Assembly: GCF_046105845.1 (NCBI RefSeq)
Contig: NZ_CP151004.1
From: Escherichia coli
Lineage (GTDB): Bacteria > Pseudomonadota > Gammaproteobacteria > Enterobacterales > Enterobacteriaceae
Reading direction: 5' to 3' (one strand)
DNA length: 64,000 bases
Positions 19,652-43,440 of the stretch are shown piece after piece. The notes under the pieces are model-generated. The model was not told where the DNA came from. It ran no database searches and worked only from the letters and a program-made list of their open reading frames with translations. Made by a program: the position numbers and the translations under genes. Position 1 is the stretch's first letter; every line of letters begins with the position of its first letter.

Positions 19652-22600
19652 TTATTCCGGGCGCGGCTTCAGCGGGAAGCGGCGGCGCACCAGCACAAAG
19701 AACAGCGGCACGAAGTAAATAGCCAGAATAGTGGCCGAAATCATCCCGCCCATTACGCCAGTACCCACCGCATGCTGACCACCGGAACCGGCACCCGTGC
19801 TGGTTGCCATTGGCAATACGCCGAAGATAAATGCCAGCGAGGTCATCAGAATCGGGCGTAAACGCTGACGGCAGGCGTGGAGCGTCGCTTCAAACAGGTC
19901 GTGGCCTTTTTGGTTCATCTCGTTAGCAAACTCGACGATCAGGATGGCGTTTTTCGCCGATAAACCAATGACCGTTAACAGGCCCACCTGGAAGTAAACG
20001 TCGTTTTCCAGCCCGCGCATCCAGGTTGCCAGCAGCGCGCCGATAACCCCCAGCGGCACGACCAGCATTACCGAGAACGGCACCGACCAGCTTTCATACA
20101 GCGCCGCCAGACACAGGAATACCACCAGCAAGGAAATGGCGTACAGCGCCGGAGCCTGCGCGCCGGAAAGCCGCTCCTGATACGACATCGCCGTCCACTC
20201 CAGACCAAAGCCGTTTGGCAGCTGCTTCACTAACGATTCCATAATATCCATCGCCGTACCGGTACTGACCCCCGGTGCGGCTTCCCCGACAATCTCTACC
20301 GCAGAATAACCGTTATAGCGTTCCAGACGCGGCGAGCCTGTCTCCCAGCGTGAGGTCGCGAAAGCAGAGAAGGGCACCATGCCGCCATCTTTATTTCGGA
20401 CATACCAGAGATTGATGTCATCTGGCAGCATGCGATATGGCGCAGCTGCCTGCACATAGACTTTCTTCACGCGACCGCGATCCATAAAGTCATTCACATA
20501 GCTCGAACCCCAGGCGGTTTGCAGCGTGTCGTTAATATCGTCGATAGCAACGCCCAGCGCCTGAGCTTTACGCTGGTCGATATCGATCTGCAACTGCGGA
20601 CTGTCATCGAGGCCGTTATGGCGCACACGGGTTAGCTCCGGGTTTTCCGCCGCCAGCGCCAGCAACTGGTTACGTGCTGCCATCAGCGCATCGTGACCTG
20701 CCCCAGCGTGGTCCTGCAACTCCATATCAAAACCTGCAGAACTGCCAAGACCGCTAATTGCTGGCGGGCTGCTGGCGATAACGCGAGCTTCTTTAATCTT
20801 GTTAAACGCCTTCGTTGCACGCTCGATAATGGCAAACGAGGTGCCGGTCTTACTGTCGCGTTCGCTCCAGTCTTTCAGGCGGATAAACATTCGCGCCACG
20901 TTTTGCCCGTTACCCCCAGGGCCAGAACCAACGGTGGCAAACACCGACATGATGTTGTCTTTTTCATGGGTGAAGTAATATTTCTCGATTTGCTCAACGA
21001 CTTTCAGGGTCTGTTGTTGGGTTGAACCGCTGGGCAACTGTACCGAGGTAGTAAACATGCCACGGTCTTCAAGTGGCAAGAACGACGTCGGCAAACGCAG
21101 GAACAGGAACACCATGCCGCCAAGCAGCAGGACATAAATCACAATCCAGCGCAGGCTACGGTGGAGAATTTTCGCCACCCCTTTTTCGTAGCGTTCGGCG
21201 TTGCGGTTAAACATCTGGTTAAACCAGGCAAAAAAGCCTTTTTGCCCGTGATGCTCACCCTTTTTCAGTGGCTTAAGTAGCGTGGCACACAGAGCCGGAG
21301 TGAGGATCATCGCTACCAGTACTGACAGCACCATCGCCGCAACAATGGTAATAGAGAACTGGCGATAGATGGCACCGGTGGTGCCGCCGAAGAAGGCCAT
21401 TGGTACAAATACCGCCGAAAGCACCATCGCAATCCCGACCAGTGCCCCCTGGATCTGCCCCATCGATTTACGTGTGGCTTCGCGAGGAGTGAGTCCTTCC
21501 TCACTCATAATACGTTCGACGTTTTCCACCACCACGATGGCGTCATCCACCAGCAGACCGATCGCCAGCACCATCGCGAACATGGTTAAGGTGTTGACGC
21601 TGTAACCGAAGGCATAAAGTACGGAGAAGGTTCCCATCAACACCACCGGCACGGCAATAGTGGGTATCAGCGTGGCGCGGAAGTTTTGCAGGAACAGATA
21701 CATAACGAGGAAAACCAGAGCGATAGCTTCCAGCAGCGTTTTCACCACGTCTTCAATGGAGGCTTTAACAAACGAGGTGGTTTCATACGCCACCTTGTAT
21801 TCCAGTCCATGCGGGAAATACTGCGCCAGCTCGTCAAGACGATTGAGCACCAGCTCCGCTGTCGCCATTTCGTTCGCGCCGGAGGCCAGTTTTACCCCCA
21901 ACCCGGAGGCTGGCTTACCATTGAAGCGGCTAAGATAATCGTATTTCTCCGCCCCCATTTCGACGGTGGCGACATCGCCCAGCCTTACCTCTGAGCCGTC
22001 CTGATTCACCCGCAAGGTGATATCGCGGAACTGTTCTGGTGTTTGCAGCAGTGACTGGGCGTTAATGGTGGCGTTGAGCGCCTGCTTATCGACGGAAGGT
22101 GTACCACCAAGTTGCCCAACCGCAATCTGCGCGTTCTGTGACTCAATGGCATCAGTGACATCTTTAGCCGTCATCTGGAAACTGTTGAGTTTCGCCGGGT
22201 CCAGCCAGATACGCATGGAATATTGCGAACCATAGGCATCGATATCCCCGACGCCATTCACGCGGCTTAACGGATCCTGAATATTACTGGCAACGTAATC
22301 GGCAATATCCTGTTTATCCATCGAACCATCGGTAGAGACGAAGGCAATGGTCAGAATATTGGTATCGCCGGTTTTACGCACCGTCACGCCCTGATTTTGC
22401 ACCGCCTGCGGTAACTTTCGCATGGCTGATTGCAGCTGGTTTTGTACTTGCTGCACGGCTTCGTCCGGATCGGTGCCTGCTTTAAAACTTAAAGTGACAG
22501 ATGCCTGGCCGGTGCCACTGCTCTGAGACGACATATACATCAAATTATCGAGGCCGGTCATATTTTGCTCGATAACCTGGGTCACGGTGTTTTCCAGCGT

Positions 22601-27582: not shown

Positions 27583-28626
27583 ATGCGCTATCGCATTTTC
27601 CTTCTCTTTTTTTTCGCTTTGTTGCCGACGTCTTTGGTGTGGGCGGCACCAGCGCAACGGGCGTTTTCCGACTGGCAGGTCACCTGTAATAACCAAAACT
27701 TCTGCGTGGCGCGTAATACGGGCGATCATAACGGACTGGTGATGACCCTGAGCCGCAGCGCCGGGGCGCATACCGATGCCGTTTTACGTATTGAGCGCGG
27801 CGGGTTGAAGTCGCCGGATGCGTCTGAAGGGGAGATAGCGCCACGGCTGCTGTTAGATGGTGAGCCGTTGGCGTTAAGTGGTGACAAGTGGCGGATTTCA
27901 CCATGGTTACTAGTAACCGATGATACGGCAACCATCACCGCGTTTTTGCAGCTGATTCAGGAAGGGAAGGCGATCACCTTACGCGATGGCAATCAGACCA
28001 TTTCTCTGAATGGCTTAAAAGCGGCGTTGTTGTTTATTGATGCTCAGCAAAAGCGCGTTGGCAGTGAAACCGCGTGGATAAAGAAAGGGGACGAACCGCC
28101 GCTCAGCGTACCGCCCGCGCCTGCGCTGAAAGAGGTCGCGGTGGTTAACCCAACGCCGACGCCACTCTCACTCGAAGAACGTAACGATTTGCTGGATTAT
28201 GGAAACTGGCGGATGAATGGTCTGCGCTGCTCGCTTGATCCGTTACGTCGTGAGGTGAATGTCACTGCGCTGACCGATGATAAAGCACTGATGATGATTA
28301 GCTGTGAGGCAGGGGCCTATAACACCATTGATTTGGCCTGGATTGTGTCGCGTAAAAAGCCACTGGCCTCGCGCCCGGTTCGGTTACGTTTGCCGTTCAA
28401 CAGCGGTCAGGAGACGAATGAACTGGAACTGATGAACGCAACATTTGATGAGAAATCGCGTGAACTGGTGACCTTAGCGAAAGGGCGCGGATTAAGCGAT
28501 TGTGGCATTCAGGCGCGCTGGCGCTTTGACGGTCAGCGTTTTCGCCTGGTGCGTTACGCCGCAGAACCCACCTGCGATAACTGGCATGGGCCAGACGCCT
28601 GGCCCACGTTGTGGATCACCCGTTAA
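27583..28626 (+). CDS. ypfG: Uncharacterised DUF1176 protein YpfG (secreted)
   Basis: 347 aa; N-terminal signal peptide (MRYRIFLLFFFALLPTSLVWA); no catalytic motif recognised. Confidence 0.9.
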   Translation: MRYRIFLLFFFALLPTSLVWAAPAQRAFSDWQVTCNNQNFCVARNTGDHNGLVMTLSRSAGAHTDAVLRIERGGLKSPDASEGEIAPRLLLDGEPLALSGDKWRISPWLLVTDDTATITAFLQLIQEGKAITLRDGNQTISLNGLKAALLFIDAQQKRVGSETAWIKKGDEPPLSVPPAPALKEVAVVNPTPTPLSLEERNDLLDYGNWRMNGLRCSLDPLRREVNVTALTDDKALMMISCEAGAYNTIDLAWIVSRKKPLASRPVRLRLPFNSGQETNELELMNATFDEKSRELVTLAKGRGLSDCGIQARWRFDGQRFRLVRYAAEPTCDNWHGPDAWPTLWITR

Positions 28627-28657
28627 ACAAAATCCCAGATGCGGCCCTAAAAAGCGC

Positions 28658-28707
28658 ACGGACCGTCCCCTCGCCCCTCTGGGGAGAGGGTTAGGGTGAG
28701 GGGAACA
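28658..28707. repeat. GC-rich palindromic intergenic repeat (non-REP family; possibly the element known as Box C)
   Basis: acggaccGTCCCCTCGCCCCTCTGGGGAGAGGGTTAGGGTGAGGGGAACA; near-identical copy at 42051..42100; contains self-complementary CCCCTCTGGGGAGAGGG. Confidence 0.6.
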
Positions 28708-28728
28708 TACAGCATCCGGCGATCACCA

Positions 28729-30732
28729 TCAGGCACCTTTCACTCCCAGCACCTTATGCGCTTTTGCCACAATATTCTCGGCGGTTAAGCCAAAGAACGG
28801 GAACAGCTTATCCGCCGGAGCAGATTCCCCATAACCTGTCATCCCGACAATTGCCCCTTTCAGGCCAACATATTTGTACCAGTAATCGGCAATACCCGCT
28901 TCCACCGCCACGCGAGCCGCAACGTTAGAAGGCAACACCGACTCGCGATATTCCTCATCCTGGGCGTCGAAAATATCGGTCGAGGGCAGGGAAACTACGC
29001 GTACATTGCGACCTTCTCCCGCTAATTTCTCTGCCGCTTGCAGGGTGATTTCCATCTCTGAACCGGTGGCAATCAAAATAATATCTGGCTTACCGCCGCT
29101 GTCTTTCAGTACATAACCGCCACGAGCAATCTCTTTAACCTGATCCGGCGTACGTTCCACCTGGGCCAGATTCTGCCTGGAGAGGATCAGTGCCGTCGGT
29201 CCGTTGTGGCGCTCAACCGCCAGCTTCCAGCCCACCGCAGCTTCCACCTGATCGCACGGTCGCCAGGTGCTGAAATTTGGCGTTAAGCGCAGACTGGCCA
29301 GTTGCTCAACAGCCTGGTGCGTAGGACCATCTTCGCCCAGACCAATTGAGTCGTGGGTATAAACCATAATCTGCCGCGCTTTCATCAGTGCCGCCATCCG
29401 CGCGGCGTTACGGGCGTATTCAACAAACATCAGGAACGTCGCGGTATACGGCACAAAGCCGCCGTGGTGCGCAATGCCGTTGGCGATAGCGGTCATGCCA
29501 AATTCACGCACCCCGTAGTGAATGTAGTTGCCCGCCGGATCTTCCTTCAGCGAAACAGAACCTTTCCAGATGGTCAGGTTGCTGGGAGCCAGATCCGCCG
29601 AACCGCCGAGCAGCTCCGGTAGCATCGGCCCGTAAGCGTTAAGCGTATTTTGCGAAGCCTTACGGGTAGCGATTTTCGCCGGATTTGCCTGTAACTCATT
29701 GATATATTTCTGAGTCGTTTTCTCCCAGTCCTTCGGTAAACCACCGCTCATCCGACGGGTAAACTCTTCTGCCAGTTGCGGATGAGCCTTTTTATAGGCG
29801 GCAAACTTCTCATTCCAGCTCTGCTGCGCTTTTTCGCCTTTTTCGCGGGCATCCCAGGCGTGATAAATCTCTTTAGGGATTTCAAATGGCGGATGGTGCC
29901 AGCCCAGTTTTTGCCGTGCCAGCGCCACTTCTTCTTCCCCCAGCGGTGCGCCGTGCGCCTCTTCCTTACCTGCTTTATTCGGCGAACCAAAGCCAATTAC
30001 CGTACGGCAGATAATCAGCGACGGCTTATCTTTCACGCTTTGCGCTTCAAGGATCGCTTCCTTCACCGCCTGCGGATCGTGACCGTCGATCTCGTGGATC
30101 ACATGCCAGTGATAGGCTTCAAAACGTTTTGCCGTATCGTCGGTAAACCAGCCTTCGGTTTCACCGTCGATGGAAATACCGTTGTGATCGTAAAAACCAA
30201 TCAGTTTGCCCAGTCCCAGCGTGCCCGCCAGCGAACAGACTTCGTGGGAAATACCTTCCATCAGGCAACCGTCGCCCATAAACACATAGGTGAAGTGATC
30301 GACAATTTCATGATCCGGCTGGTTAAACTGCGCCGCCAGTGTACGCTCTGCTATCGCCAGCCCGACGGCGTTCGCCAAACCTTGTCCAAGTGGACCGGTG
30401 GTGGTTTCAACACCTGGCGTATAACCAATCTCCGGGTGACCTGGGGTTTTTGAATGCAACTGACGGAAGTTCTTCAGCTCTTCCAGCGGCAGGTCGTAAC
30501 CGGTCAGATGCAGCAAACTGTAGAGCAGCATCGACGCGTGGCCGTTGGAAAGAATAAAGCGGTCGCGATCATACCAGGTTGGGTCGGTAGGATTATGTTT
30601 AAGAAAATCGTTCCACAGCACTTCGGCAATATCAGCCATGCCCATCGGCGCGCCGGGATGACCAGAATTGGCTTTTTGTACCGCATCCATACTGAGTGCG
30701 CGAATCGCATTGGCAAGGTCTTTTCGGGACAT
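28729..30732 (-). CDS. tktB: Transketolase 2 (TktB)
   Basis: 667 aa from ATG 30732 ([27 protein letters not shown]...); thiamine-diphosphate motif GDGCLMEG. Confidence 0.96.
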
Positions 30733-30751
30733 ATAACACTCCGTGGCTGGT

Positions 30752-31702
30752 TTATAGTTTGGCGGCAAGAAGATCTTCCAGTTTGCGTTGATCAACGGCG
30801 AACAGACGAATGCCTTCAGACAGTTTTTCTACCGCCATCGCATCCTGATTGTGCTCCCAACGGAACTCCGCTTCGCTCATGGGAGCTGGGCGTGGGAACG
30901 TCTGAGAAGGTGGGATTAATTTACGTACCACTGGCGAAACTTTTTCCTGCAGCTCCTTCAGCAAATTCGGTGCGATAGTCAGTCGATCGCAGCCGGTTAA
31001 GGCGAGGATTTGTTCGGTGCGACGGAAGCTCGCGCCCATCACAATGGTTTCATAGTGGTGTTGCTTATAGTAGTCGTAGATATTGCGCACCGATTTAACG
31101 CCCGGATCTTCTTCCACCACATACGGGTCCATCGGCTTGCGTGCCTGATACCAGTCATAAATACGCCCGACAAACGGCGAAATCAGAAATACGCCTGCTT
31201 CTGCACAGGCCCGCGCCTGTGCAAAAGAAAACAGCAGCGTCAGGTTGCAGTTAATACCTTCTTTTTCCAGCTCTTCTGCCGCGCGAATTCCTTCCCAGGT
31301 TGAAGCCAGCTTGATCAGAATGCGTGATTTCTCAACGCCTTGTTGCTGATACAAGTCCACCAGATGGCGCGCCTTCTCAATGCTCTTTTCTTTATCAAAA
31401 GAGAGGCGTGCATCAACTTCTGTTGACACGCGACCGGGTACGATTTTGAGAATTTCAGCACCGAAATTGACCGCCAGTTTGTCACATGCTGCGACCACCT
31501 GTTGTTCCTGGGTTTTGCCATTTTTTCTACCCCAGGCGATAGCATCGTCTATTAAATGCTCATATTGTGATAATCCGGCAGCCTTGAGTAACAGCGAAGG
31601 ATTGGTGGTGGCATCCTGGGGATGATAATGGCGAATGGACTCAATATCGCCGCTGTCTGCCACGACAGTGGTGAACTGTTTGATGCCGTCTAACTCGTTC
31701 AT
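30752..31702 (-). CDS. talA: Transaldolase A (TalA)
   Basis: 316 aa; immediately upstream of tktB (20 bp spacer), operon arrangement. Confidence 0.95.
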
Positions 31703-31990
31703 AGGAAATACTCCTTGAAAAGTAAAGTGTTAGATGAGTGCGTTAATTCACACTTCTGAGAAATTTCGCTAAACGCATCAAAAAAGCATAGCAGACAGGC
31801 ATGGTATTGCTGGATTAAGCAGGTAACATCAGTGTTATAGGATTATTACCAAAACATTATATTAATGGTGAGAGTTTGGACTTGCTCAAAGTCTGTAGAC
31901 TCCGGCAAGGTAATAATGTGCGCCACGTTGTGGGCAGGGGCTGTTGCCCACACACTTTATTTGTGAACGTTACGTGAAAGGAACAACCAA

Positions 31991-34270
31991 ATGGATGACC
32001 AGTTAAAACAAAGTGCACTTGATTTCCATGAATTTCCAGTTCCAGGGAAAATCCAGGTTTCTCCAACCAAGCCTCTGGCAACGCAGCGCGATCTGGCGCT
32101 GGCCTACTCACCAGGCGTTGCCGCACCTTGTCTTGAAATCGAAAAAGACCCGTTAAAAGCCTACAAATATACCGCGCGCGGTAACCTGGTGGCGGTGATC
32201 TCTAACGGTACGGCTGTGCTGGGGTTAGGCAACATTGGCGCACTGGCAGGCAAACCGGTGATGGAAGGCAAGGGCGTTCTGTTTAAGAAATTCGCCGGGA
32301 TTGATGTATTTGACATTGAAGTTGATGAACTCGACCCGGACAAATTTATTGAAGTCGTCGCCGCGCTCGAACCAACCTTCGGCGGCATCAACCTCGAAGA
32401 CATTAAAGCGCCAGAATGTTTCTATATTGAACAGAAACTGCGCGAGCGGATGAATATTCCGGTATTCCACGACGATCAGCACGGCACGGCAATTATCAGC
32501 ACTGCCGCCATCCTCAACGGCTTGCGCGTGGTGGAGAAAAACATCTCTGACGTGCGTATGGTGGTTTCCGGCGCGGGTGCTGCAGCAATCGCCTGTATGA
32601 ACCTGCTGGTCGCGCTGGGTCTGCAAAAACATAACATCGTGGTTTGCGACTCAAAAGGCGTTATCTATCAGGGCCGTGAGCCAAACATGGCGGAAACCAA
32701 AGCCGCATATGCGGTGGTGGATGACGGCAAACGTACCCTCGATGATGTGATTGAAGGCGCGGATATTTTCCTGGGATGTTCCGGCCCGAAAGTGCTGACC
32801 CAGGAAATGGTGAAGAAAATGGCCCGTGCGCCAATGATCCTGGCGCTGGCGAACCCGGAACCGGAAATTCTGCCGCCGCTGGCGAAAGAAGTGCGTCCGG
32901 ATGCCATCATCTGTACCGGCCGTTCCGACTACCCGAACCAGGTGAACAACGTTCTTTGCTTCCCGTTCATCTTCCGTGGCGCGCTGGACGTTGGCGCAAC
33001 CGCCATCAACGAAGAGATGAAACTGGCGGCGGTACGCGCGATTGCAGAACTGGCCCATGCGGAACAGAGTGAAGTGGTGGCTTCAGCTTATGGCGATCAG
33101 GATCTGAGCTTTGGTCCGGAATACATCATTCCAAAACCATTTGATCCGCGCTTGATCGTTAAGATCGCTCCTGCGGTCGCTAAAGCCGCGATGGAGTCGG
33201 GTGTGGCGACGCGTCCGATTGCTGATTTCGACGTCTACATCGACAAGCTGACGGAGTTCGTTTACAAAACCAACCTGTTTATGAAGCCGATTTTCTCCCA
33301 GGCTCGCAAAGCGCCGAAGCGCGTCGTTCTGCCGGAAGGGGAAGAGGCGCGCGTTCTGCATGCCACTCAGGAACTGGTAACGCTGGGGCTGGCGAAACCG
33401 ATCCTTATCGGTCGTCCGAACGTGATCGAAATGCGCATTCAGAAACTGGGCTTGCAGATCAAAGCGGGTGTTGATTTTGAGATCGTCAATAACGAATCCG
33501 ATCCGCGCTTTAAAGAGTACTGGACTGAATACTTCCAGATCATGAAGCGTCGCGGTGTCACTCAGGAACAGGCGCAGCGTGCATTGATCAGTAACCCGAC
33601 AGTGATCGGCGCGATCATGGTTCAGCGTGGCGAAGCCGATGCAATGATCTGCGGTACGGTGGGCGATTATCATGAACATTTTAGCGTGGTGAAAAATGTC
33701 TTTGGTTATCGCGATGGCGTTCACACCGCAGGTGCCATGAACGCGCTGCTGCTGCCGAGTGGTAACACCTTTATTGCCGATACATACGTCAATGACGAAC
33801 CAGACGCAGAAGAGCTTGCGGAGATCACCTTGATGGCGGCAGAAACTGTTCGTCGTTTTGGTATTGAGCCGCGCGTGGCTCTGTTGTCGCACTCCAACTT
33901 TGGTTCTTCTGACTGCCCGTCGTCGAGCAAAATGCGTCAGGCGCTGGAACTGGTCAGGGAACGTGCACCAGAACTGATGATTGATGGTGAAATGCACGGC
34001 GATGCAGCGCTGGTGGAAGCGATTCGCAGCGACCGTATGCCGGACAGCCCTTTGAAAGGTTCCGCCAATATTCTGGTGATGCCGAACATGGAAGCTGCCC
34101 GCATTAGTTACAACTTATTGCGCGTTTCCAGCTCGGAAGGTGTGACTGTCGGCCCGGTGCTGATGGGCGTGGCGAAACCGGTTCACGTGTTAACGCCGAT
34201 CGCATCGGTACGTCGTATCGTCAACATGGTGGCGCTAGCCGTGGTTGAAGCACAAACCCAACCGCTGTAA
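31991..34270 (+). CDS. maeB: NADP-dependent malic enzyme MaeB (malic enzyme plus PTA-like C-terminal domain)
   Basis: 759 aa; N-terminus [28 protein letters not shown]. Confidence 0.96.
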
Positions 34271-34287
34271 TTCATTCTTAACTCTCA

Positions 34288-34321
34288 CGCTTACCCTGAA
34301 TATTCAGGGTAAGCGGTTTTC
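34288..34321 (+). terminator. Intrinsic terminator of maeB
   Basis: cgcttaccctga-atat-tcagggtaagcg, perfect 12 bp stem, followed by gtttt. Confidence 0.85.
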
Positions 34322-34562
34322 CTGAAATATATTAGCAAAGTTTATTACTGAGTTTGCGAATAATAAAAAAAGCAGTATATAAATTATCTCGATATTATTT
34401 TATTTATATTCATGCCTCGCATATGAAAGTTTATTCATAACAGTAAATATCTCTCCATTCTTAGTGATCTACCTCACCTTTTAAACGCGCTTGCCGAATT
34501 TTGTTATTTACTCTGACGAAAAATTGTCACGATACACGAAAGTTTTTCACAGGCGGCGACTC

Positions 34563-34898
34563 ATGGATAAAGAACGCATCATTCAGGAATTTGTGCCCGG
34601 TAAACAGGTCACACTGGCGCATCTCATCGCGCATCCCGGCGAGGAACTGGCGAAGAAAATCGGCGTTCCTGATGCGGGCGCAATCGGCATTATGACGCTA
34701 ACTCCCGGCGAAACGGCGATGATCGCCGGTGATTTAGCACTAAAAGCCGCCGATGTGCATATCGGTTTTCTCGACCGTTTTAGCGGCGCGTTGGTGATTT
34801 ATGGCTCGGTGGGTGCAGTAGAAGAAGCGTTATCACAAACCGTCAGCGGTTTAGGGCGTTTATTAAATTATACGCTTTGTGAAATGACCAAAAGTTAA
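34563..34898 (+). CDS. eutS: Microcompartment shell protein EutS (permuted BMC domain)
   Basis: 111 aa from ATG 34563 ([28 protein letters not shown]...); first gene of eut operon. Confidence 0.93.
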
Positions 34899-34910
34899 TA
34901 CGAGGCATTC

Positions 34911-35390
34911 ATGAAACGAATTGCGTTTGTGGGTACCGTCGGGGCAGGAAAAACAACGTTATTTAATGCGTTGCAGGGAGATTATACCCTCGCCAGAAAA
35001 ACGCAGGCCGTAGAATTTAATGATAAGGGCGATATTGATACGCCGGGTGAATATTTTAGCCATCCCCGCTGGTATCACGCCTTAATTACCACGCTACAGG
35101 ATGTGGACATGCTGATCTATGTCCATGGCGCAAATGACCCGGAAAGCCGATTGCCTGCCGGGTTGCTGGATATTGGCGTCAGCAAACGGCAAATCGCCAT
35201 CATCAGTAAAACGGACATGCCGGATGCTGACGTCGCCGCAACGCGAAAGTTATTGCTTGAGACGGGCTTCGAGGAGCCGATTTTCGAGCTAAACAGCCAC
35301 GACCCGCAAAGCGTGCAGCAACTGGTGGATTATCTGGCATCTCTCACCAAACAGGAGGAAGCAGGTGAAAAAACTCATCACAGCGAATGA
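34911..35390 (+). CDS. eutP: Ethanolamine utilisation protein EutP (P-loop GTPase-like)
   Basis: 159 aa; Walker A GTVGAGKTT. Confidence 0.93.
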   Translation: MKRIAFVGTVGAGKTTLFNALQGDYTLARKTQAVEFNDKGDIDTPGEYFSHPRWYHALITTLQDVDMLIYVHGANDPESRLPAGLLDIGVSKRQIAIISKTDMPDADVAATRKLLLETGFEEPIFELNSHDPQSVQQLVDYLASLTKQEEAGEKTHHSE

Positions 35391-36066
35391 TATTCGTGAA
35401 GCACACGCGCGCGGCGAACAGGCAATGTCCGTGGTTCTGCGCGCCAGCATTATTACCCCGGAAGCCCGTGAAGTGGCAGATCTACTGGGTTTTACCATCA
35501 CTGAATGTGATGAATCGACCCCGGTAACGGCGTCCGTTCCCGCCAGCGTGCCAGCCGATAAAACCGAAAGCCAGCGCATCCGCGAAACCATCATCGCCCA
35601 GCTACCGGAAGGCCAGTTTACCGAAAGCCTGGTCGCGCAGCTGATGGAAAAAGTGATGAAGGAAAAACTGTCGCTGGAGCAGGGTGCAATGCAGCCGAGT
35701 TTCAAATCGGTGACCGGCAAAGGCGGCATCAAAGTTATTGATGGCAGCAGCGTCAAGTTTGGTCGTTTCGACGGCGCACAGCCACACTGCGTCGGATTAA
35801 CGGATCTGGTCACCGGAGACGACGGCAGCAGCATGGCCGCTGGTTTTATGCAGTGGGAGAACGCCTTCTTCCCGTGGACCCTGAACTATGACGAAATCGA
35901 CATGGTACTGGAAGGGGAACTGCACGTTCGCCACGAAGGCGAAACCATGATCGCCAAAGCAGGCGACGTGATGTTTATCCCGAAAGGCTCCAGCATCGAA
36001 TTTGGTACGACATCCAGCGTGAAATTCCTGTATGTCGCCTGGCCGGCTAACTGGCAATCCCTATGA
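35365..36066 (+). CDS. eutQ: Ethanolamine utilisation protein EutQ (cupin-type)
   Basis: 233 aa from GTG 35365; overlaps eutP by 26 bp. Confidence 0.92.
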   Translation: MKKLITANDIREAHARGEQAMSVVLRASIITPEAREVADLLGFTITECDESTPVTASVPASVPADKTESQRIRETIIAQLPEGQFTESLVAQLMEKVMKEKLSLEQGAMQPSFKSVTGKGGIKVIDGSSVKFGRFDGAQPHCVGLTDLVTGDDGSSMAAGFMQWENAFFPWTLNYDEIDMVLEGELHVRHEGETMIAKAGDVMFIPKGSSIEFGTTSSVKFLYVAWPANWQSL

Positions 36067-36866
36067 AAGATTTCATCACCGAAGCATGGCTAAGAGCGAA
36101 CCATACGCTCAGCGAAGGCGCAGAGATCCATCTCCCTGCGGACAGTCGCCTGACGCCCTCTGCCCGGGAGTTGCTGGAAAGCCGCCATCTGCGCATCAAG
36201 TTTATTGACGAGCAGGGCCGCCTGTTTGTTGACGATGAACAGCAGCAGCCGCAGCCCGTTCATGGGCTGACCAGTAGCGATGAACATCCGCAGGCGTGCT
36301 GCGAACTGTGCCGCCAGCCGGTGGCGAAAAAGCCGGATACGCTGACTCACCTGTCGGCGGAAAAAATGGTTGCCAAAAGCGATCCGCGTCTGGGTTTTCG
36401 TGCGGTTCTCGACAGCACCATTGCGCTGGCAGTGTGGCTGCAAATTGAACTGGCGGAACCGTGGCAGCCGTGGCTGGCGGATATCCGTTCGCGTCTTGGC
36501 AACATTATGCGTGCCGATGCGCTGGGGGAACCGCTGGGCGATCAAGCGATTGTCGGGCTTTCTGACGAAGATCTGCACCGGCTTTCTCATCAGCCGTTGC
36601 GTTATCTTGGTCACGATCATCTGGTGCCGGAAGCCAGCCACGGGCGCGATGCGGCGTTGCTGAATCTGCTACGCACCAAAGTGCGGGAAACCGAAACCGT
36701 AGCGGCGCAGGTGTTTATCACCCGCAGCTTTGAAGTATTACGCCCGGACATCTTGCAGGCGCTGAACCGCCTTTCCAGCACGGTCTACGTGATGATGATC
36801 CTGAGCGTAACGAAGCAGCCGCTAACGGTGAAGCAGATCCAACAACGACTGGGGGAAACGCAATGA
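36063..36866 (+). CDS. eutT: Ethanolamine utilisation corrinoid adenosyltransferase EutT
   Basis: 267 aa; start overlaps eutQ stop (ATGA). Confidence 0.92.
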
Positions 36867-37879
36867 TTATTGAACGTTGTCGTGAACTGGCGTTGCGAGC
36901 GCCCGCCACAGTGGTTTTTCCGGATGCGTTAGATCAACGTGTGCTGAAAGCTGCGCAATATTTACATCAACAAGGTCTGGCAACGCCCATTCTGGTCGCC
37001 AATCCGTTTGAACTTCGTCAGTTTGCGCTCAGTCACGGCGTGGCGATGGACGGGCTACAGGTGATAGATCCACATGGCAACCTCGCAATGCGGGAAGAAT
37101 TTGCCCATCGCTGGCTGGCCCGCGCGGGCGAAAAAACGCCGCCGGATGCGCTGGAAAAACTCACCGAACCGCTTATGTTCGCCGCAGCAATGGTCAGCGC
37201 CGGTAAAGCGGATGTCTGTATCGCGGGCAACCTCTCTTCCACGGCGAATGTGCTGCGTGCCGGATTACGCATTATCGGCTTGCAGCCAGGCTGTAAAACG
37301 CTCTCCTCCATTTTCCTGATGCTGCCACAGTACAGTGGCCCCGCATTGGGCTTTGCCGATTGCAGCGTGGTGCCACAGCCGACGGCGGCGCAGTTGGCGG
37401 ATATCGCGCTTGCCAGCGCCGAAACCTGGCGCGCCATCACCGGAGAAGAGCCGCGCGTGGCGATGTTGTCGTTTTCCAGTAACGGCAGCGCCCGTCACCC
37501 CTGCGTTGCCAATGTCCAGCAGGCGACAGAAATCGTCCGTGAGCGCGCGCCGCAGTTGGTAGTCGATGGCGAGTTGCAGTTTGACGCCGCCTTCGTGCCG
37601 GAAGTGGCGGCGCAAAAAGCGCCTGCCAGCCCGCTACAAGGCAAGGCCAATGTGATGGTTTTTCCGTCGCTGGAAGCCGGAAATATTGGCTACAAAATCG
37701 CACAACGACTCGGCGGATATCGTGCCGTCGGGCCATTGATACAAGGACTTGCCGCGCCGATGCACGATCTCTCTCGTGGTTGTAGCGTGCAGGAAATTAT
37801 CGAGCTGGCGCTGGTGGCAGCTGTGCCGCGTCAGACAGAAGTAAACCGTGAAAGCAGTTTACAAACACTGGTTGAATGA
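36863..37879 (+). CDS. eutD: Phosphotransacetylase EutD
   Basis: 338 aa PTA-family sequence; start overlaps eutT stop. Confidence 0.93.
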
Positions 37880-37917
37880 ACGGTCCCGTTCTGGACCCTG
37901 ATAAAGAGGAAAGCACA

Positions 37918-38211
37918 ATGGAAGCATTAGGAATGATCGAAACCCGGGGCCTGGTTGCACTGATTGAGGCTTCTGACGCGATGGTTAAAGCTGCGCGCGT
38001 CAAGCTGGTTGGTGTTAAGCAGATTGGCGGCGGCCTGTGTACTGCCATGGTTCGTGGTGATGTTGCAGCCTGTAAAGCCGCGACCGACGCAGGTGCTGCA
38101 GCGGCACAGCGTATCGGCGAGCTGGTATCTGTACACGTTATCCCGCGTCCGCACGGCGACCTGGAAGAAGTCTTCCCGATCGGCCTGAAAGGCGATAGCA
38201 GCAACCTGTAA
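37918..38211 (+). CDS. eutM: Major microcompartment shell protein EutM (BMC-H)
   Basis: 97 aa from ATG 37918 preceded by AAGAGGA; [28 protein letters not shown]. Confidence 0.95.
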
Positions 38212-38317
38212 TCACCCTGTGTGACGTCGATTCGGGCGTCACGCTCTCTCCTTTTTCAGTTTACCTTCCGCGGAGGGTAGGGGGAGCTTTTACCTGAAAT
38301 ACGCCACGGAGGCGGGT

Positions 38318-38605
38318 ATGAAACTGGCAGTCGTCACTGGACAAATTGTTTGTACCGTACGCCATCACGGACTGGCGCATGACAAATTGCTGATGGTGGA
38401 AATGATTGATCCACAAGGTAATCCTGACGGGCAATGTGCCGTCGCCATCGACAATATTGGCGCGGGAACCGGGGAGTGGGTGTTGCTGGTGAGTGGCAGT
38501 TCTGCCCGCCAGGCGCATAAAAGCGAAACGTCACCGGTCGATCTGTGCGTGATTGGCATCGTCGATGAGGTGGTGTCTGGCGGTCAGGTAATTTTCCACA
38601 AATAA
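38318..38605 (+). CDS. eutN: Microcompartment vertex protein EutN (BMC-V)
   Basis: 95 aa (MKLAVVTGQIVCTVRHHGLAHDKLLMVEMID...). Confidence 0.94.
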   Translation: MKLAVVTGQIVCTVRHHGLAHDKLLMVEMIDPQGNPDGQCAVAIDNIGAGTGEWVLLVSGSSARQAHKSETSPVDLCVIGIVDEVVSGGQVIFHK

Positions 38606-38616
38606 GGCAGAACATC

Positions 38617-40020
38617 ATGAATCAACAGGATATTGAACAGGTGGTGAAAGCGGTACTGCTGAAAATGCAAAGCAGTGACACGCCGCCCGCCGCCGTTCAT
38701 GAGATAGGCGTTTTCGCGTCCCTGGATGACGCCGTTGCGGCAGCCAAAATTGCCCAGCAAGGGTTAAAGAGCGTGGCAATGCGCCAGTTAGCCATTGCTG
38801 CCATTCGTGAAGCAGGCGAAAAACACGCCAGAGATTTAGCGGAACTTGCCGTCAGTGAAACCGGCATGGGCCGCATCGAAGATAAATTTGCCAAAAACGT
38901 CGCTCAGGCGCGCGGCACACCGGGCGTTGAGTGCCTCTCTCCGCAGGTGCTGACTGGCGACAACGGCCTGACTTTAATTGAAAACGCGCCCTGGGGCGTG
39001 GTGGCTTCGGTGACGCCTTCCACTAACCCGGCGGCAACCGTCATTAATAACGCCATCAGCCTGATTGCCGCGGGCAACAGCGTCATTTTTGCCCCGCATC
39101 CGGCGGCGAAAAAAGTCTCCCAGCGGGCGATCACGCTGCTCAACCAGGCGATTGTTGCCGCAGGCGGGCCGGAAAACTTACTGGTTACTGTGGCCAATCC
39201 GGATATCGAAACCGCGCAACGTTTGTTCAAGTTCCCGGGTATCGGCCTGCTGGTGGTGACCGGCGGCGAAGCGGTAGTGGAAGCGGCGCGTAAACACACC
39301 AATAAACGTCTGATTGCCGCAGGTGCTGGCAACCCGCCGGTAGTGGTGGATGAAACCGCTGACCTCGCCCGTGCAGCTCAGTCCATCGTCAAAGGCGCGT
39401 CTTTCGATAACAACATCATTTGTGCCGACGAAAAGGTACTGATTGTTGTGGATAGCGTAGCCGATGAACTGATGCGTCTGATGGAAGGCCAGCACGCGGT
39501 GAAACTGACCGCAGAGCAGGCGCAGCAGCTACAACCGGTGTTGCTGAAAAATATCGACGAGCGCGGAAAAGGCACCGTCAGCCGTGACTGGGTTGGTCGT
39601 GATGCGGCGAAAATCGCGGCGGCAATCGGCCTTACAGTTCCGGAACAAACGCGACTGCTGTTTGTAGAAACCACCGCAGAACATCCGTTTGCCGTGACCG
39701 AACTGATGATGCCGGTGCTGCCCGTCGTGCGCGTCGCCAACGTGGCGGATGCCATTGCGCTGGCGGTGAAACTGGAAGGCGGTTGCCACCACACGGCGGC
39801 AATGCACTCGCGCAATATCGAGAACATGAACCAGATGGCGAATGCCATTGATACCAGCATTTTCGTTAAGAACGGACCGTGCATTGCCGGGCTGGGGCTG
39901 GGCGGGGAAGGCTGGACCACCATGACCATCACCACGCCAACCGGTGAAGGGGTAACCAGCGCGCGTACGTTTGTCCGTCTGCGTCGCTGTGTATTAGTCG
40001 ATGCGTTTCGCATTGTTTAA
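38617..40020 (+). CDS. eutE: CoA-acylating acetaldehyde dehydrogenase EutE
   Basis: 467 aa aldehyde dehydrogenase-family sequence with active-site Cys context (NNIICADEK). Confidence 0.94.
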   Translation: MNQQDIEQVVKAVLLKMQSSDTPPAAVHEIGVFASLDDAVAAAKIAQQGLKSVAMRQLAIAAIREAGEKHARDLAELAVSETGMGRIEDKFAKNVAQARGTPGVECLSPQVLTGDNGLTLIENAPWGVVASVTPSTNPAATVINNAISLIAAGNSVIFAPHPAAKKVSQRAITLLNQAIVAAGGPENLLVTVANPDIETAQRLFKFPGIGLLVVTGGEAVVEAARKHTNKRLIAAGAGNPPVVVDETADLARAAQSIVKGASFDNNIICADEKVLIVVDSVADELMRLMEGQHAVKLTAEQAQQLQPVLLKNIDERGKGTVSRDWVGRDAAKIAAAIGLTVPEQTRLLFVETTAEHPFAVTELMMPVLPVVRVANVADAIALAVKLEGGCHHTAAMHSRNIENMNQMANAIDTSIFVKNGPCIAGLGLGGEGWTTMTITTPTGEGVTSARTFVRLRRCVLVDAFRIV

Positions 40021-40030
40021 GGAGTAACCG

Positions 40031-40867
40031 ATGGCGCACGACGAACAATGGCTCACCCCACGTCTGCACATAGCGGCAACGCTGTGTAACCAGACGCCTG
40101 CCGCGACGGAATCTCCGCTGTGGCTGGGGGTGGATTTGGGCACCTGCGATGTGGTGTCGATGGTTGTTGACCGCGACGGTCAGCCGGTGGCGGTATGCCT
40201 CGACTGGGCTGATGTGGTCCGCGACGGCATCGTCTGGGATTTCTTCGGTGCGGTCACCATTGTTCGTCGCCATCTCGACACCCTCGAGCAGCAATTCGGT
40301 CGCCGTTTTAGCCATGCGGCGACCTCTTTTCCTCCAGGTACGGACCCGCGTATTTCCATCAACGTGCTGGAGTCTGCCGGGCTGGAAGTGAGCCATGTGC
40401 TGGATGAGCCAACCGCAGTCGCGGATCTGCTGCAACTGGACAACGCCGGTGTAGTGGATATCGGCGGTGGCACTACCGGCATTGCCATCGTGAAAAAGGG
40501 CAAGGTGACGTACTCGGCAGATGAAGCCACCGGCGGACATCACATCTCTCTGACTCTCGCCGGAAATCGTCGTATTTCGCTGGAAGAGGCAGAGCAGTAC
40601 AAGCGCGGTCACGGTGAAGAGATTTGGCCCGCGGTGAAACCGGTGTACGAAAAAATGGCGGACATTGTTGCCCGGCATATTGAAGGGCAGGGCATTACTG
40701 ATTTATGGCTGGCGGGCGGCTCCTGTATGCAACCGGGCGTGGCGGAACTGTTTTGCAAACAATTCCCGGCGTTACAGGTGCATCTACCGCAGCACAGTTT
40801 GTTTATGACCCCGCTGGCGATCGCCAGTAGCGGGCGAGAGAAAGCGGAGGGGATCTATGCAAAATGA
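40031..40867 (+). CDS. eutJ: Ethanolamine utilisation chaperone-like protein EutJ (actin/Hsp70-fold ATPase)
   Basis: 278 aa; phosphate-binding loops DLGTCD and DIGGGTTG. Confidence 0.93.
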   Translation: MAHDEQWLTPRLHIAATLCNQTPAATESPLWLGVDLGTCDVVSMVVDRDGQPVAVCLDWADVVRDGIVWDFFGAVTIVRRHLDTLEQQFGRRFSHAATSFPPGTDPRISINVLESAGLEVSHVLDEPTAVADLLQLDNAGVVDIGGGTTGIAIVKKGKVTYSADEATGGHHISLTLAGNRRISLEEAEQYKRGHGEEIWPAVKPVYEKMADIVARHIEGQGITDLWLAGGSCMQPGVAELFCKQFPALQVHLPQHSLFMTPLAIASSGREKAEGIYAK

Positions 40868-42044
40868 ATTGCAGACCGCGCTCTTTCAGGCGTTCGATAC
40901 CCTGAATCTGCAACGGGTAAAAACATTTAGCGTTCCACCGGTGACGCTTTGCGGTCCGGGCGCGATGAGCAGTTGCGGGCAGCAAGCGCAAACGCGTGGG
41001 CTGAAACATCTGTTCGTGATGGCAGACAGCTTTTTGCATCAGGCGGGGATGACCGCCGGGCTGACGCGTAGCCTGGCCGTTAAAGGTATCGCCATGACGC
41101 TCTGGCCATGTCTGGTGGGCGAACCGTGCATCACCGACGTGTGTGCAGCCGTGGCGCAGTTGCGTGAATCGGGTTGCGATGGGGTGATCGCGTTTGGTGG
41201 TGGCTCGGTGCTGGATGCGGCAAAAGCCGTGGCGTTGCTGGTGACGAATCCCGATAGCACGCTGGCAGAAATGTCAGAAACCAGCATTCTGCAACCGCGC
41301 CTGCCGTTGATTGCCATTCCAACGACCGCCGGAACCGGCTCTGAAACCACCAACGTAACGGTGATTATCGACGCTGTGAGCGGGCGCAAGCAGGTGTTAG
41401 CCCACGCCTCGCTGATGCCGGATGTGGCGATTCTCGACGCTGCGCTGACCGAAGGCGTGCCGTCGCATGTCACGGCGATGACTGGCATTGATGCGTTAAC
41501 CCATGCTATTGAAGCGTACAGCGCGCTGAACGCGACACCGTTTACCGACAGCCTGGCGATTGGCGCAATCGCGATGATTGGTAAATCACTGCCGAAAGCG
41601 GTGGGCTACGGTCATGACCTTGCCGCGCGCGAGAGCATGTTGCTGGCTTCATGCATGGCGGGAATGGCGTTTTCCAGTGCGGGGCTTGGGTTATGCCACG
41701 CGATGGCGCATCAGCCGGGGGCGGCGCTGCATATTCCGCACGGTCTGGCGAACGCCATGTTGCTGCCAACGGTGATGGAATTTAACCGGATGGTTTGTCG
41801 TGAACGCTTTAGTCAGATTGGTCGGGCGCTGCGAACTAAAAAATCCGACGATCGTGACGCTATTAACGCGGTAAGTGAGCTGATTGCGGAAGTCGGGATT
41901 GGTAAACGACTGGGCGATATTGGTGCGACATCTGCGCATTACGGCGCATGGGCGCAGGCCGCGCTGGAAGATATTTGTCTGCGCAGCAACCCGCGTACCG
42001 CCAGCCTGGAGCAGATTATTGGTCTGTATGCTGCGGCGCAATAA
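40857..42044 (+). CDS. eutG: Iron-containing alcohol dehydrogenase EutG
   Basis: 395 aa Fe-ADH family (GGGSVLDAAKAVA); overlaps eutJ by 11 bp. Confidence 0.94.
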   Translation: MQNELQTALFQAFDTLNLQRVKTFSVPPVTLCGPGAMSSCGQQAQTRGLKHLFVMADSFLHQAGMTAGLTRSLAVKGIAMTLWPCLVGEPCITDVCAAVAQLRESGCDGVIAFGGGSVLDAAKAVALLVTNPDSTLAEMSETSILQPRLPLIAIPTTAGTGSETTNVTVIIDAVSGRKQVLAHASLMPDVAILDAALTEGVPSHVTAMTGIDALTHAIEAYSALNATPFTDSLAIGAIAMIGKSLPKAVGYGHDLAARESMLLASCMAGMAFSSAGLGLCHAMAHQPGAALHIPHGLANAMLLPTVMEFNRMVCRERFSQIGRALRTKKSDDRDAINAVSELIAEVGIGKRLGDIGATSAHYGAWAQAALEDICLRSNPRTASLEQIIGLYAAAQ

Positions 42045-42050
42045 AAGTGT

Positions 42051-42160
42051 ACGGACAGTCCCCTCGCCCCTTTGGGGAGAGGGTTAGGGTGAGGGGAACA
42101 GAGTCGCGCCGGTGCAAACAATTACCCTCACCCCGGCCCCTCGGCTTCCAGAGTGAGGGA
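42051..42160. repeat. Composite GC-rich palindromic repeat in the eutG-eutH spacer (two inverted units)
   Basis: Unit 1 at 42051..42100 is a near-identical copy of 28658..28707; a second unit in opposite orientation (accctcacccc...gagtgaggg) at 42124..42159. Confidence 0.6.
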
Positions 42161-42213
42161 AAAACCCACTTTCAGCATTGGCAATAAATAACAACTAACA
42201 GGGAGTAAAGGTG

Positions 42214-43440
42214 ATGGGAATTAACGAAATCATCATGTACATCATGATGTTCTTTATGCTGATAGCTGCCGTAGACAGGATCCTGTCGCAGTTCGGTGGT
42301 TCTGCTCGTTTCCTCGGTAAGTTCGGTAAAAGTATCGAAGGATCAGGCGGGCAGTTTGAAGAAGGCTTTATGGCAATGGGCGCTCTGGGCCTGGCGATGG
42401 TCGGTATGACCGCGCTGGCACCGGTACTGGCTCACGTACTCGGGCCGGTAATTATCCCGGTTTACGAAATGCTCGGTGCAAACCCGTCAATGTTCGCCGG
42501 AACACTGCTGGCGTGCGATATGGGCGGGTTCTTCCTCGCCAAAGAGCTGGCGGGCGGCGACGTAGCAGCGTGGCTATACTCTGGGTTAATTCTCGGGTCG
42601 ATGATGGGGCCAACGATTGTGTTTTCCATTCCGGTGGCGCTCGGCATTATCGAACCTTCTGACCGTCGTTATCTGGCGCTCGGCGTGCTGGCGGGCATTG
42701 TGACCATTCCGATTGGCTGTATTGCTGGTGGTCTGGTTGCTATGTACTCCGGTGTGCAGATCAACGGTCAGCCGGTGGAATTCACCTTTGCGCTGATCCT
42801 GATGAACATGATCCCGGTACTTATCGTTGCGGTGCTGGTGGCGCTGGGGCTGAAATTCATCCCGGAAAAAATGATCAACGGCTTCCAGATCTTCGCCAAA
42901 TTCCTCGTTGCATTGATCACCCTCGGTCTTGCTGCCGCGGTAGTGAAATTCCTCCTTGGCTGGGAACTGATCCCCGGTCTGGATCCTATCTTTATGGCCC
43001 CTGGCGATAAACCCGGTGAAGTGATGCGCGCCATTGAAGTTATCGGTTCTATCTCCTGCGTTCTGTTAGGGGCGTACCCGATGGTACTGCTGCTGACTCG
43101 CTGGTTTGAAAAACCGCTGATGAGCGTCGGTAAAGTGCTGAATATGAACAACATCGCGGCAGCTGGCATGGTGGCAACGCTTGCCAACAATATCCCGATG
43201 TTCGGCATGATGAAGCAGATGGATACCCGCGGCAAAGTGATCAACTGTGCCTTCGCCGTTTCCGCTGCTTTCGCCCTGGGTGACCACTTAGGCTTCGCCG
43301 CTGCCAACATGAACGCCATGATTTTCCCGATGATTGTCGGCAAGTTGATCGGCGGCGTAACGGCGATTGGCGTGGCGATGATGCTGGTGCCAAAAGAAGA
43401 CGCGACCGCGGCCAAAACCGAAGTGGAGGCACAATCGTGA
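42214..43440 (+). CDS. eutH: Ethanolamine permease EutH
   Basis: 408 aa polytopic membrane protein from ATG 42214 (MGINEIIMYIMMFFML...). Confidence 0.94.
   Translation: MGINEIIMYIMMFFMLIAAVDRILSQFGGSARFLGKFGKSIEGSGGQFEEGFMAMGALGLAMVGMTALAPVLAHVLGPVIIPVYEMLGANPSMFAGTLLACDMGGFFLAKELAGGDVAAWLYSGLILGSMMGPTIVFSIPVALGIIEPSDRRYLALGVLAGIVTIPIGCIAGGLVAMYSGVQINGQPVEFTFALILMNMIPVLIVAVLVALGLKFIPEKMINGFQIFAKFLVALITLGLAAAVVKFLLGWELIPGLDPIFMAPGDKPGEVMRAIEVIGSISCVLLGAYPMVLLLTRWFEKPLMSVGKVLNMNNIAAAGMVATLANNIPMFGMMKQMDTRGKVINCAFAVSAAFALGDHLGFAAANMNAMIFPMIVGKLIGGVTAIGVAMMLVPKEDATAAKTEVEAQS

Follow-up and report, generated by a model that had tools for sequence, protein, structure and literature searches.

Between the convergent genes ypfG and tktB of this E. 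coli genome lies a G/C-rich palindromic repeat, and an almost identical copy is found next to eutG. The locus raises the questions of which repeat this is, why the two copies resemble each other so closely, and whether the element stops transcription from the genes on either side of it. A preliminary description of the window (the whole stretch of 64,000 nucleotides analysed here) had proposed a dispersed, recently homogenised repeat family and, between ypfG and tktB, a bidirectional transcription barrier. The first question can be answered with very high confidence: The element, a solo copy, belongs to the known repeat BoxC (PIT element, TMECO) and is of type A with one mismatch. The finding therefore is a correct rediscovery of a catalogued E. 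coli repeat and matters little in itself. Two side results are of possible use, namely that one and the same spacer is occupied by REP in some strains and by BoxC in others, and that RNA 3' ends determined by Term-seq are found at BoxC hairpins at several loci.

Identification of the Element

BoxC is a G/C-rich intergenic repeat of E. coli that has been known since the 1990s. The unit has a length of approximately 55-60 bp and is found in enterobacteria; over time, it was named BoxC, then PIT (potential intrastrand triplex) element, and then TMECO triplex motif (Bachellier et al.; Hoyne et al. 2000; Holder et al. 2015, PMC4666352). As RefSeq leaves BoxC unannotated, it looks unexplained in the raw sequence. 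All features discussed in the following are collected in Table 1.

The copy at 28658-28707 reads ACGGACCGTCCCCTCGCCCCTCTGGGGAGAGGGTTAGGGTGAGGGGAACA. Both copies in the window match the consensus CCCTCNCCC N3-6 GGGNGAGGG N3 GGGNGAGGG[GTC-] exactly, as established by a regular expression and by block parsing, and the core of the ypfG-tktB copy is parsed as CCCTCGCCC / CTCTG / GGGAGAGGG / TTA / GGGTGAGGG / G. In either copy, blocks 1 and 2 are Watson-Crick complementary at 8/9 positions, while blocks 3 and 2 are compatible with reverse-Hoogsteen pairing at 9/9. The ypfG-tktB copy owes its designation "type A mm" to a single G.A mismatch between its first two blocks; this class is the commonest one in K-12 (PMC4666352).

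The agreement with known copies extends to single letters. The 36-nt core at 28668-28703, with its CTCTG loop, is letter-identical to the K-12 copies TMECO #9, 16, 19, and 22, and the core at 42061-42096, with a CTTTG loop, is letter-identical to #7, 11, and 15. K-12 copy #9 was read directly in the fabI-ycjD spacer, the locus from which the name "box C" originates. Outside the core, an alignment of 15 type A copies yields the flank consensus caAaAa.G.gc.CggaC.GTC + core + GAAcAg, that is, a 5' extension composed of A-run, G, GCAC, GGAC, and GTC, and a 3' tail GAACAG. Both window copies conform to these flanks. The A-run of the family comprises at least four A in 7/15 and at least three A in 9/15 of the type A copies.

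Taken together, the window element has the consensus, the blocks, the TTA loop, the G.A mismatch, the flanking extension, the intergenic site, and the copy number in common with BoxC/PIT/TMECO. Nothing essential differs, except that the ypfG-tktB locus is without BoxC in K-12, where a REP is located. Judged by their sequence, both window copies are ordinary family members; the ypfG-tktB copy stands alone, like 13 of the 23 copies in K-12 (PMC4666352). An Rfam scan of the region 28000-43000 returned no family, the only hit being a sub-threshold chance match to Antizyme_FSE (22 bits versus a gathering score of 40, E = 0.68), and a search of the Holder et al. supplements by gene name for the ypfG-tktB locus gave no matches.

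Table 1. Features of the ypfG-tktB and eutG-eutH loci (window coordinates) and curated RNA 3' ends at BoxC copies of K-12 (last four lines, K-12 coordinates).
Feature	Position	Strand	Basis or remark
ypfG (DUF1176 protein, 347 aa)	27583..28626	+	ORF list, annotation of matching E. coli loci
Conserved hairpin GGGCCAG-ACGC-CTGGCCC in last 40 nt of ypfG	28588..28605	-	sequence; K-12 homologue
ypfG/tktB stop-to-stop spacer, convergent, 102 bp	28627..28728	.	ORF list and RefSeq annotation of matching E. coli loci
Outer imperfect inverted repeat, left arm ATCCCAGATGC, REP-arm-like	28632..28642	+	pairs with 28712-28723 in whole-spacer folds, both strands
Full BoxC unit: A-run, GCGCACGGACCGTC extension, 36-nt core, GAACA tail	28649..28707	+ (G-rich strand)	consensus of 15 type A copies
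A5 on plus strand, T5 on tktB strand, 13 nt 3' of hairpin	28649..28653	-	sequence
Block 1, CCCTCGCCC, pyrimidine arm	28668..28676	+	TMECO consensus parse
Loop 1, CTCTG	28677-28681	+	block parse
Block 2, GGGAGAGGG, purine arm	28682..28690	+	block parse
Loop 2, TTA (defines type A)	28691-28693	+	type definition from PMC4666352
Block 3, GGGTGAGGG, candidate third strand	28694..28702	+	block parse
Outer inverted repeat, right arm GCATCCGGCGAT, common to REP alleles of other strains	28712..28723	+	allele comparison and folds
tktB (transketolase 2)	28729..30732	-	start placed by K-12 gene length and 19-nt gap to talA
eutG	40857-42044	.	borders the spacer of the second copy
Second BoxC unit (CTTTG loop, type A mm), follows eutG stop immediately	42043..42100	+	core equals K-12 TMECO #7, 11, 15
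Blocks of the eut copy	42061-42069, 42075-42083, 42087-42095	+	block parse
Degenerate inverted type B-like copy, CCCTCACTC..GAGGGGCCGGGGTGAGGG, CCG loop	42125..42159	-	sequence and parse
eutH	from 42211/42214	.	borders the spacer of the second copy
lldD	3781065	+	C-rich RNA strand of BoxC; 3' end 4 nt past hairpin
hrpB-mrcB	164636	+	C-rich RNA strand; 3' end 5 nt past hairpin
fepB leader	624567	-	C-rich, type A mm; 12 nt past hairpin, just before GCUUUG
ppiC	3959467	-	G-rich RNA strand; 3' end 4 nt past block 2

Family Size and Relatedness of the Two Copies

Direct reading and alignment agree that the copies at 28658-28707 and 42051-42100 differ at exactly 2 of 50 bases, as the preliminary description had stated. 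One difference is located in the prefix (28664 C versus 42057 A), the other one in the core, where it falls into the first loop (28679 C versus 42072 T). A 37-nt core occurs twice in the window, at 28667-28703 and at 42060-42096, each time on the plus strand. Both BoxC copies are intergenic, and the location of the ypfG-tktB copy between convergent genes is borne out by the stop codons at 28626 (+) and 28729 (-).

A genome-wide count with a 71-bp query found the repeat in 5425/5426 complete E. coli genomes, with 1-29 places per genome and a median of 16, in good agreement with the proposed dispersed repeat family. Recent homogenisation of the two copies need not be assumed: Each window core is letter-identical to several K-12 copies megabases away, and CTCTG versus CTTTG in the loop, the sole difference between the cores, is a standing variant of the family. 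Since each window copy is equally close to distant copies, the similarity of the two reflects family-wide conservation, not local homogenisation. As to the surrounding DNA, positions 20000-44000 of the window are 98.7% identical over 24 kb to the best of 5426 complete RefSeq E. coli genomes.

The eutG-eutH Locus

The eut copy is part of a composite spanning 42043-42168, in which the type A unit (+) is followed by a 28-bp spacer and an inverted type B-like copy. This is the known layout of an inverted A+B pair, an arrangement found at five K-12 loci (PMC4666352); at the eut locus, however, the type B partner is degenerate and fails the strict consensus. The whole composite (query positions 62-179) shares 84-86% identity with A+B pairs found elsewhere in E. 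coli. Between eutG and eutH, the BoxC pair was identified in 304 complete E. coli genomes (approximately 6%), the rest carrying BIMEs, and the matched stretch spans 171-587 bp among strains.

The 3' end of eutG resembles the left flank of the ypfG copy. We treated this likeness as a coincidence, the segment being native eutG coding sequence that is also present in K-12. Elsewhere in the operon, eutB (44852-46213) comes immediately after eutA (43437-44840); the cryptic prophage CPZ-55, which lies beside eutA in K-12, is absent here and the eut operon is uninterrupted.

Alternation of BoxC and REP in the Same Spacers

In K-12, both spacers that harbor BoxC in the window (28627-28728 and 42045-42213) contain REP/BIME in its place (21641-21734 and 8109-8324 of the K-12 comparison stretch). 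With a BoxC allele called at >=90% identity over 181 bp, 954/5445 matching records carry BoxC at ypfG-tktB, corresponding to approximately 17% of complete E. coli genomes, while 4486/5445 records carry REP alleles of several lengths with shared flanks. Among the strains with the BoxC allele are Nissle 1917, ATCC 25922, and 042, which match at 98-100%. On the left, the ypfG-tktB alleles agree up to ...AAACAAAAT, on the right they agree again from CAGCATCCGGCGATCACC... onwards, and the segment in between is replaced, not simply inserted.

In the window, BoxC is enclosed by an outer imperfect inverted repeat, whose arms of 11-12 nt (28632-28642 and 28712-28723) are the only REP-like parts of the spacer. 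A REP palindrome of approximately 35 bp (GCCGGATGCG...CGCATCCGGC type) was not found there, and the REP alleles that occupy this spacer in other strains show no alignment to the BoxC segment. One idea is that the left flank CCCAGATGCGGCC might be a candidate for a REP that was split by the insertion of BoxC.

REP/BIME thus is the alternative occupant of exactly both window spacers in K-12 and most strains, and it shares with BoxC the character of a G/C-rich imperfect palindrome in transcribed 3' spacers. However, there is no sequence similarity between the two, and REP has two arms only, without a third block. REP is linked to the RAYT transposase; for BoxC, we know of no RAYT-like link, nor of one to gyrase or IHF. 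Interactions of REP with gyrase and IHF have been reported (PMC2267715).

Spacers of related bacteria, found through YpfG homologues, reveal further occupants. An Escherichia-like contig, whose YpfG is 83% identical, leaves 18 bp between the stop codons (1745-1762) and represents an empty site; another Escherichia-like relative has a REP, and Citrobacter farmeri a REP array. The Salmonella spacer comprises 422 bp (1745-2166) with a 76-aa ORF that looks unannotated. Because alleles and relatives vary at this position, the ypfG-tktB spacer can be regarded as a permissive landing pad for different repeats. In K-12, 6 of the 12 BoxC loci that were fetched are situated between convergent genes.

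DNA Structure and Instability

In vitro, the isolated G-rich strand of identical sequence stalls DNA polymerase and folds back into an intramolecular triplex of the purine motif, which is very stable. The triplex was derived from CD and NMR on TMECO type A mm oligonucleotides, with a Tm of about 74 C, where the control oligonucleotide was the eut-copy sequence with four G-to-C changes (PMC4666352). The triplex reverts to duplex once the complementary strand is present, and in vivo DMS footprinting did not detect it (PMC4666352). BoxC resembles H-DNA and mirror-repeat triplex motifs in its purine/pyrimidine blocks with mirror symmetry, in polymerase stalling, and in genome instability; it differs from them in its intrastrand three-block design and in that the triplex was not detected in duplex DNA or in vivo.

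BoxC loci have been described as unusually variable (PMC4666352). A comparison of the K-12 yjdP-phnP locus with three shorter alleles revealed deletions of 70, 51, and 112 bp, by which three independent alleles have lost all or part of BoxC. The deletions end in short direct repeats, TCGCCCCTC or CCCTC, which are supplied by the C-rich BoxC blocks, and these end points support putative slippage or microhomology deletion at BoxC as well as the published link of BoxC to instability. Upstream at the same K-12 locus, a second, partial BoxC-like hairpin is present. Instability is not universal within the family, since the zntA-tusA copy is kept in 5147/5426 genomes.

Transcript Ends at BoxC

An intrinsic terminator was defined as a G/C-rich stem-loop with a U-rich tract within 0-2 nt. 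The promoter and terminator consensus scan retrieved nothing, with no terminator site on either strand in 28300-29000. The preliminary description had stated that a T-run is lacking. This is correct for the plus strand but wrong for the minus strand, where a T5 (28649-28653) begins 13 nt after the stem. RNA folding predicts stable hairpins on both strands (-26 and -25 kcal/mol), the energies of which are only modestly better than those of composition-matched shuffles (z -0.4 to -2.3). As summarised in PMC4666352, the assays by Hoyne and Maher assigned to PIT/BoxC neither promoter nor terminator activity and no effect on RNA polymerase.

RNA 3' ends were taken from the curated Term-seq data of K-12 (Adams et al. 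2021, PMC7815308), a strain with the REP allele at ypfG-tktB. Four of the 18 K-12 BoxC loci have a curated 3' end at the element. The lldD end is located in a significant Rho termination region and has an intrinsic-terminator score of 1.3. Other transcripts cross BoxC: The adk mRNA ends 61 nt further at a classical terminator and the ilvC mRNA ends at a hairpin 40 nt further, so that read-through is seen once in each orientation of the element. The gcvP transcript stops at a classical terminator before a BoxC pair. In the fepB leader, a very abundant end at 624680(-) (approximately 10^5 reads) precedes the type B copy by 4 nt.

On the tktB strand of K-12, the 3' end at 2581778(+) is located past the REP spacer and inside ypfG, 6 nt beyond the homologue of the hairpin at 28588-28605; it corresponds to window position 28582. 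As this end maps past the ypfG-internal hairpin, the K-12 tktB mRNA extends, in antisense orientation, into the end of ypfG. Moreover, because it lies beyond the spacer, the spacer element may not set the tktB end at all.

According to the model of Dar and Sorek, stable U-less hairpins, including REP, do not stop the polymerase and instead protect Rho-dependent 3' ends (PMC6061677). BoxC resembles these hairpins, as it is likewise stable and without an adjacent U-tract, and at four K-12 loci the RNA ends within a few nt after the stem, in one case in a Rho region; it differs in that an exonuclease role of BoxC is our own reading of these ends. Since the K-12 ends sit past U-less hairpins and yet transcripts cross the element, the data fit this model and not a polymerase roadblock.

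Alternative Explanations

Could the match of the two loci be a chance likeness of low-complexity G/C tracts? The G+C content is high and runs of G and C are present. Yet the 37-nt core did not occur once in 100 dinucleotide-preserving shuffles, with up to 3 mismatches allowed, and the cores are letter-identical to catalogued copies. The similarity is no plain G/C tract but comprises three 9-nt blocks, kept in order and separated by defined loops. Chance similarity is thereby refuted and retains next to no probability. A non-autonomous, MITE-like mobile element, with the near-identity resulting from recent transposition into the spacer, would account for copies that are nearly identical across the genome, differ in presence and absence among strains, form A+B inverted pairs resembling terminal inverted repeats, occur at 34 places on plasmids, and are missing from the 18-bp site of one Escherichia-like outgroup. 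This explanation is rather unlikely, however, as the allele comparisons revealed neither a target-site duplication nor a clean insertion boundary, BoxC and REP alleles being replacements of each other. The search for a clean empty site led to the 18-bp one only, which belongs to a diverged outgroup, and the "empty" alleles of yjdP-phnP are deletions rather than pre-insertion sites. Furthermore, 95% of genomes share an orthologous zntA-tusA copy, and BoxC has no associated transposase (PMC4666352). With respect to structure, 18 sharp imino signals were seen by NMR with the full oligonucleotide, consistent with a triplex and not with a G-quadruplex (PMC4666352), and block 1 competes for block 2 through Watson-Crick pairing. 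Both observations make it very improbable that the functional structure is a G-quadruplex built from the four G-runs of the G-rich strand, be it as DNA or as RNA of the ypfG strand, even though GGGGAGAGGGTTAGGGTGAGGGG fits the canonical motif (four runs of at least 3 G, loops of 1-7 nt; regular expression matches at 28681-28703 and 42074-42096) and the 64-kb window contains only one such motif besides those of the two BoxC copies. The third motif, GGGCTGGGGCTGGGCGGGG, is located at 39889-39907 on the plus strand.

The remaining alternative is the proposed bidirectional barrier, which would stop RNA polymerase arriving from ypfG and from tktB by a non-classical mechanism. The position between convergent genes, the stable hairpins on both strands, the T5 of the minus strand 13 nt after the hairpin, and the RNA 3' ends at four K-12 loci are all consistent with such a function. 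They have to be set against the consensus scan, in which either strand is free of terminator-like sites, against the published assays as reported in PMC4666352, and against the adk and ilvC mRNAs, which pass through the element. In addition, BoxC also occurs within the operons of pstA-pstB and yihS-yihR as well as in the fepB leader, and the tktB-strand end of K-12 lies past the spacer. We therefore consider a barrier to RNA polymerase unlikely, and the ypfG-tktB BoxC is probably not a transcription roadblock. What stands of the original proposal is that transcripts of K-12 do end at BoxC without a classic terminator, 4-12 nt past the hairpin at four loci.

A Proposed Model for BoxC at RNA and DNA Level

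The best explanation of the locus, and in our judgement a likely one, is a solo BoxC copy in a permissive spacer between gene ends, combined with a hairpin and slippage mechanism. Our confidence in the mechanism as such, an RNA hairpin together with DNA slippage, is moderate. At the DNA level, BoxC would usually be inert; in single-stranded form, its CCCTC/GAGGG repeat blocks may favour slippage or microhomology deletion. At the RNA level, blocks 1 and 2 are predicted to form a strong hairpin without an adjacent U-tract, which would not stop RNA polymerase. The hairpin may stop 3'-to-5' exonucleases and, like REP, could thus fix the mature 3' end of an mRNA after diffuse or Rho-dependent termination downstream. 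Applied to the window, the model predicts an end of the tktB-strand RNA close to 28663 or 28656, or else read-through as far as the conserved ypfG-internal hairpin (end at approximately 28582).

The ypfG-tktB BoxC is best regarded as a structured repeat that is either tolerated or selfish. The Term-seq ends give rise to the hypothesis that BoxC may play a REP-like role in shaping mRNA 3' ends. A more far-reaching idea is that BoxC and REP are functionally interchangeable "hairpin cassettes", transcribed BoxC setting and protecting mRNA 3' ends after Rho-dependent termination. It is based on the observation that 2/2 BoxC sites of the window are REP/BIME sites in K-12, and we regard it as conceivable but doubtful. 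If true, BoxC would have a real role at the RNA level that older plasmid terminator assays could have missed. A search for later functional work on BoxC/TMECO found none in the literature library covered.

Occurrence on Plasmids and in Distant Bacteria

The BoxC-like matches on plasmids include, for example, NZ_AP023208.1 2572-2610; by contrast, BoxC was reported to have no association with plasmids (PMC4666352). The strict TMECO consensus also occurs far outside the enterobacteria. Among the matches listed, it is abundant in Polaromonas, Mitsuaria chitosanitabida, and Contendobacter as well as in MAGs of Hyphomicrobiales and Myxococcales, and the matches listed from these distant bacteria often come, like those of E. 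coli, in inverted pairs with little space in between.
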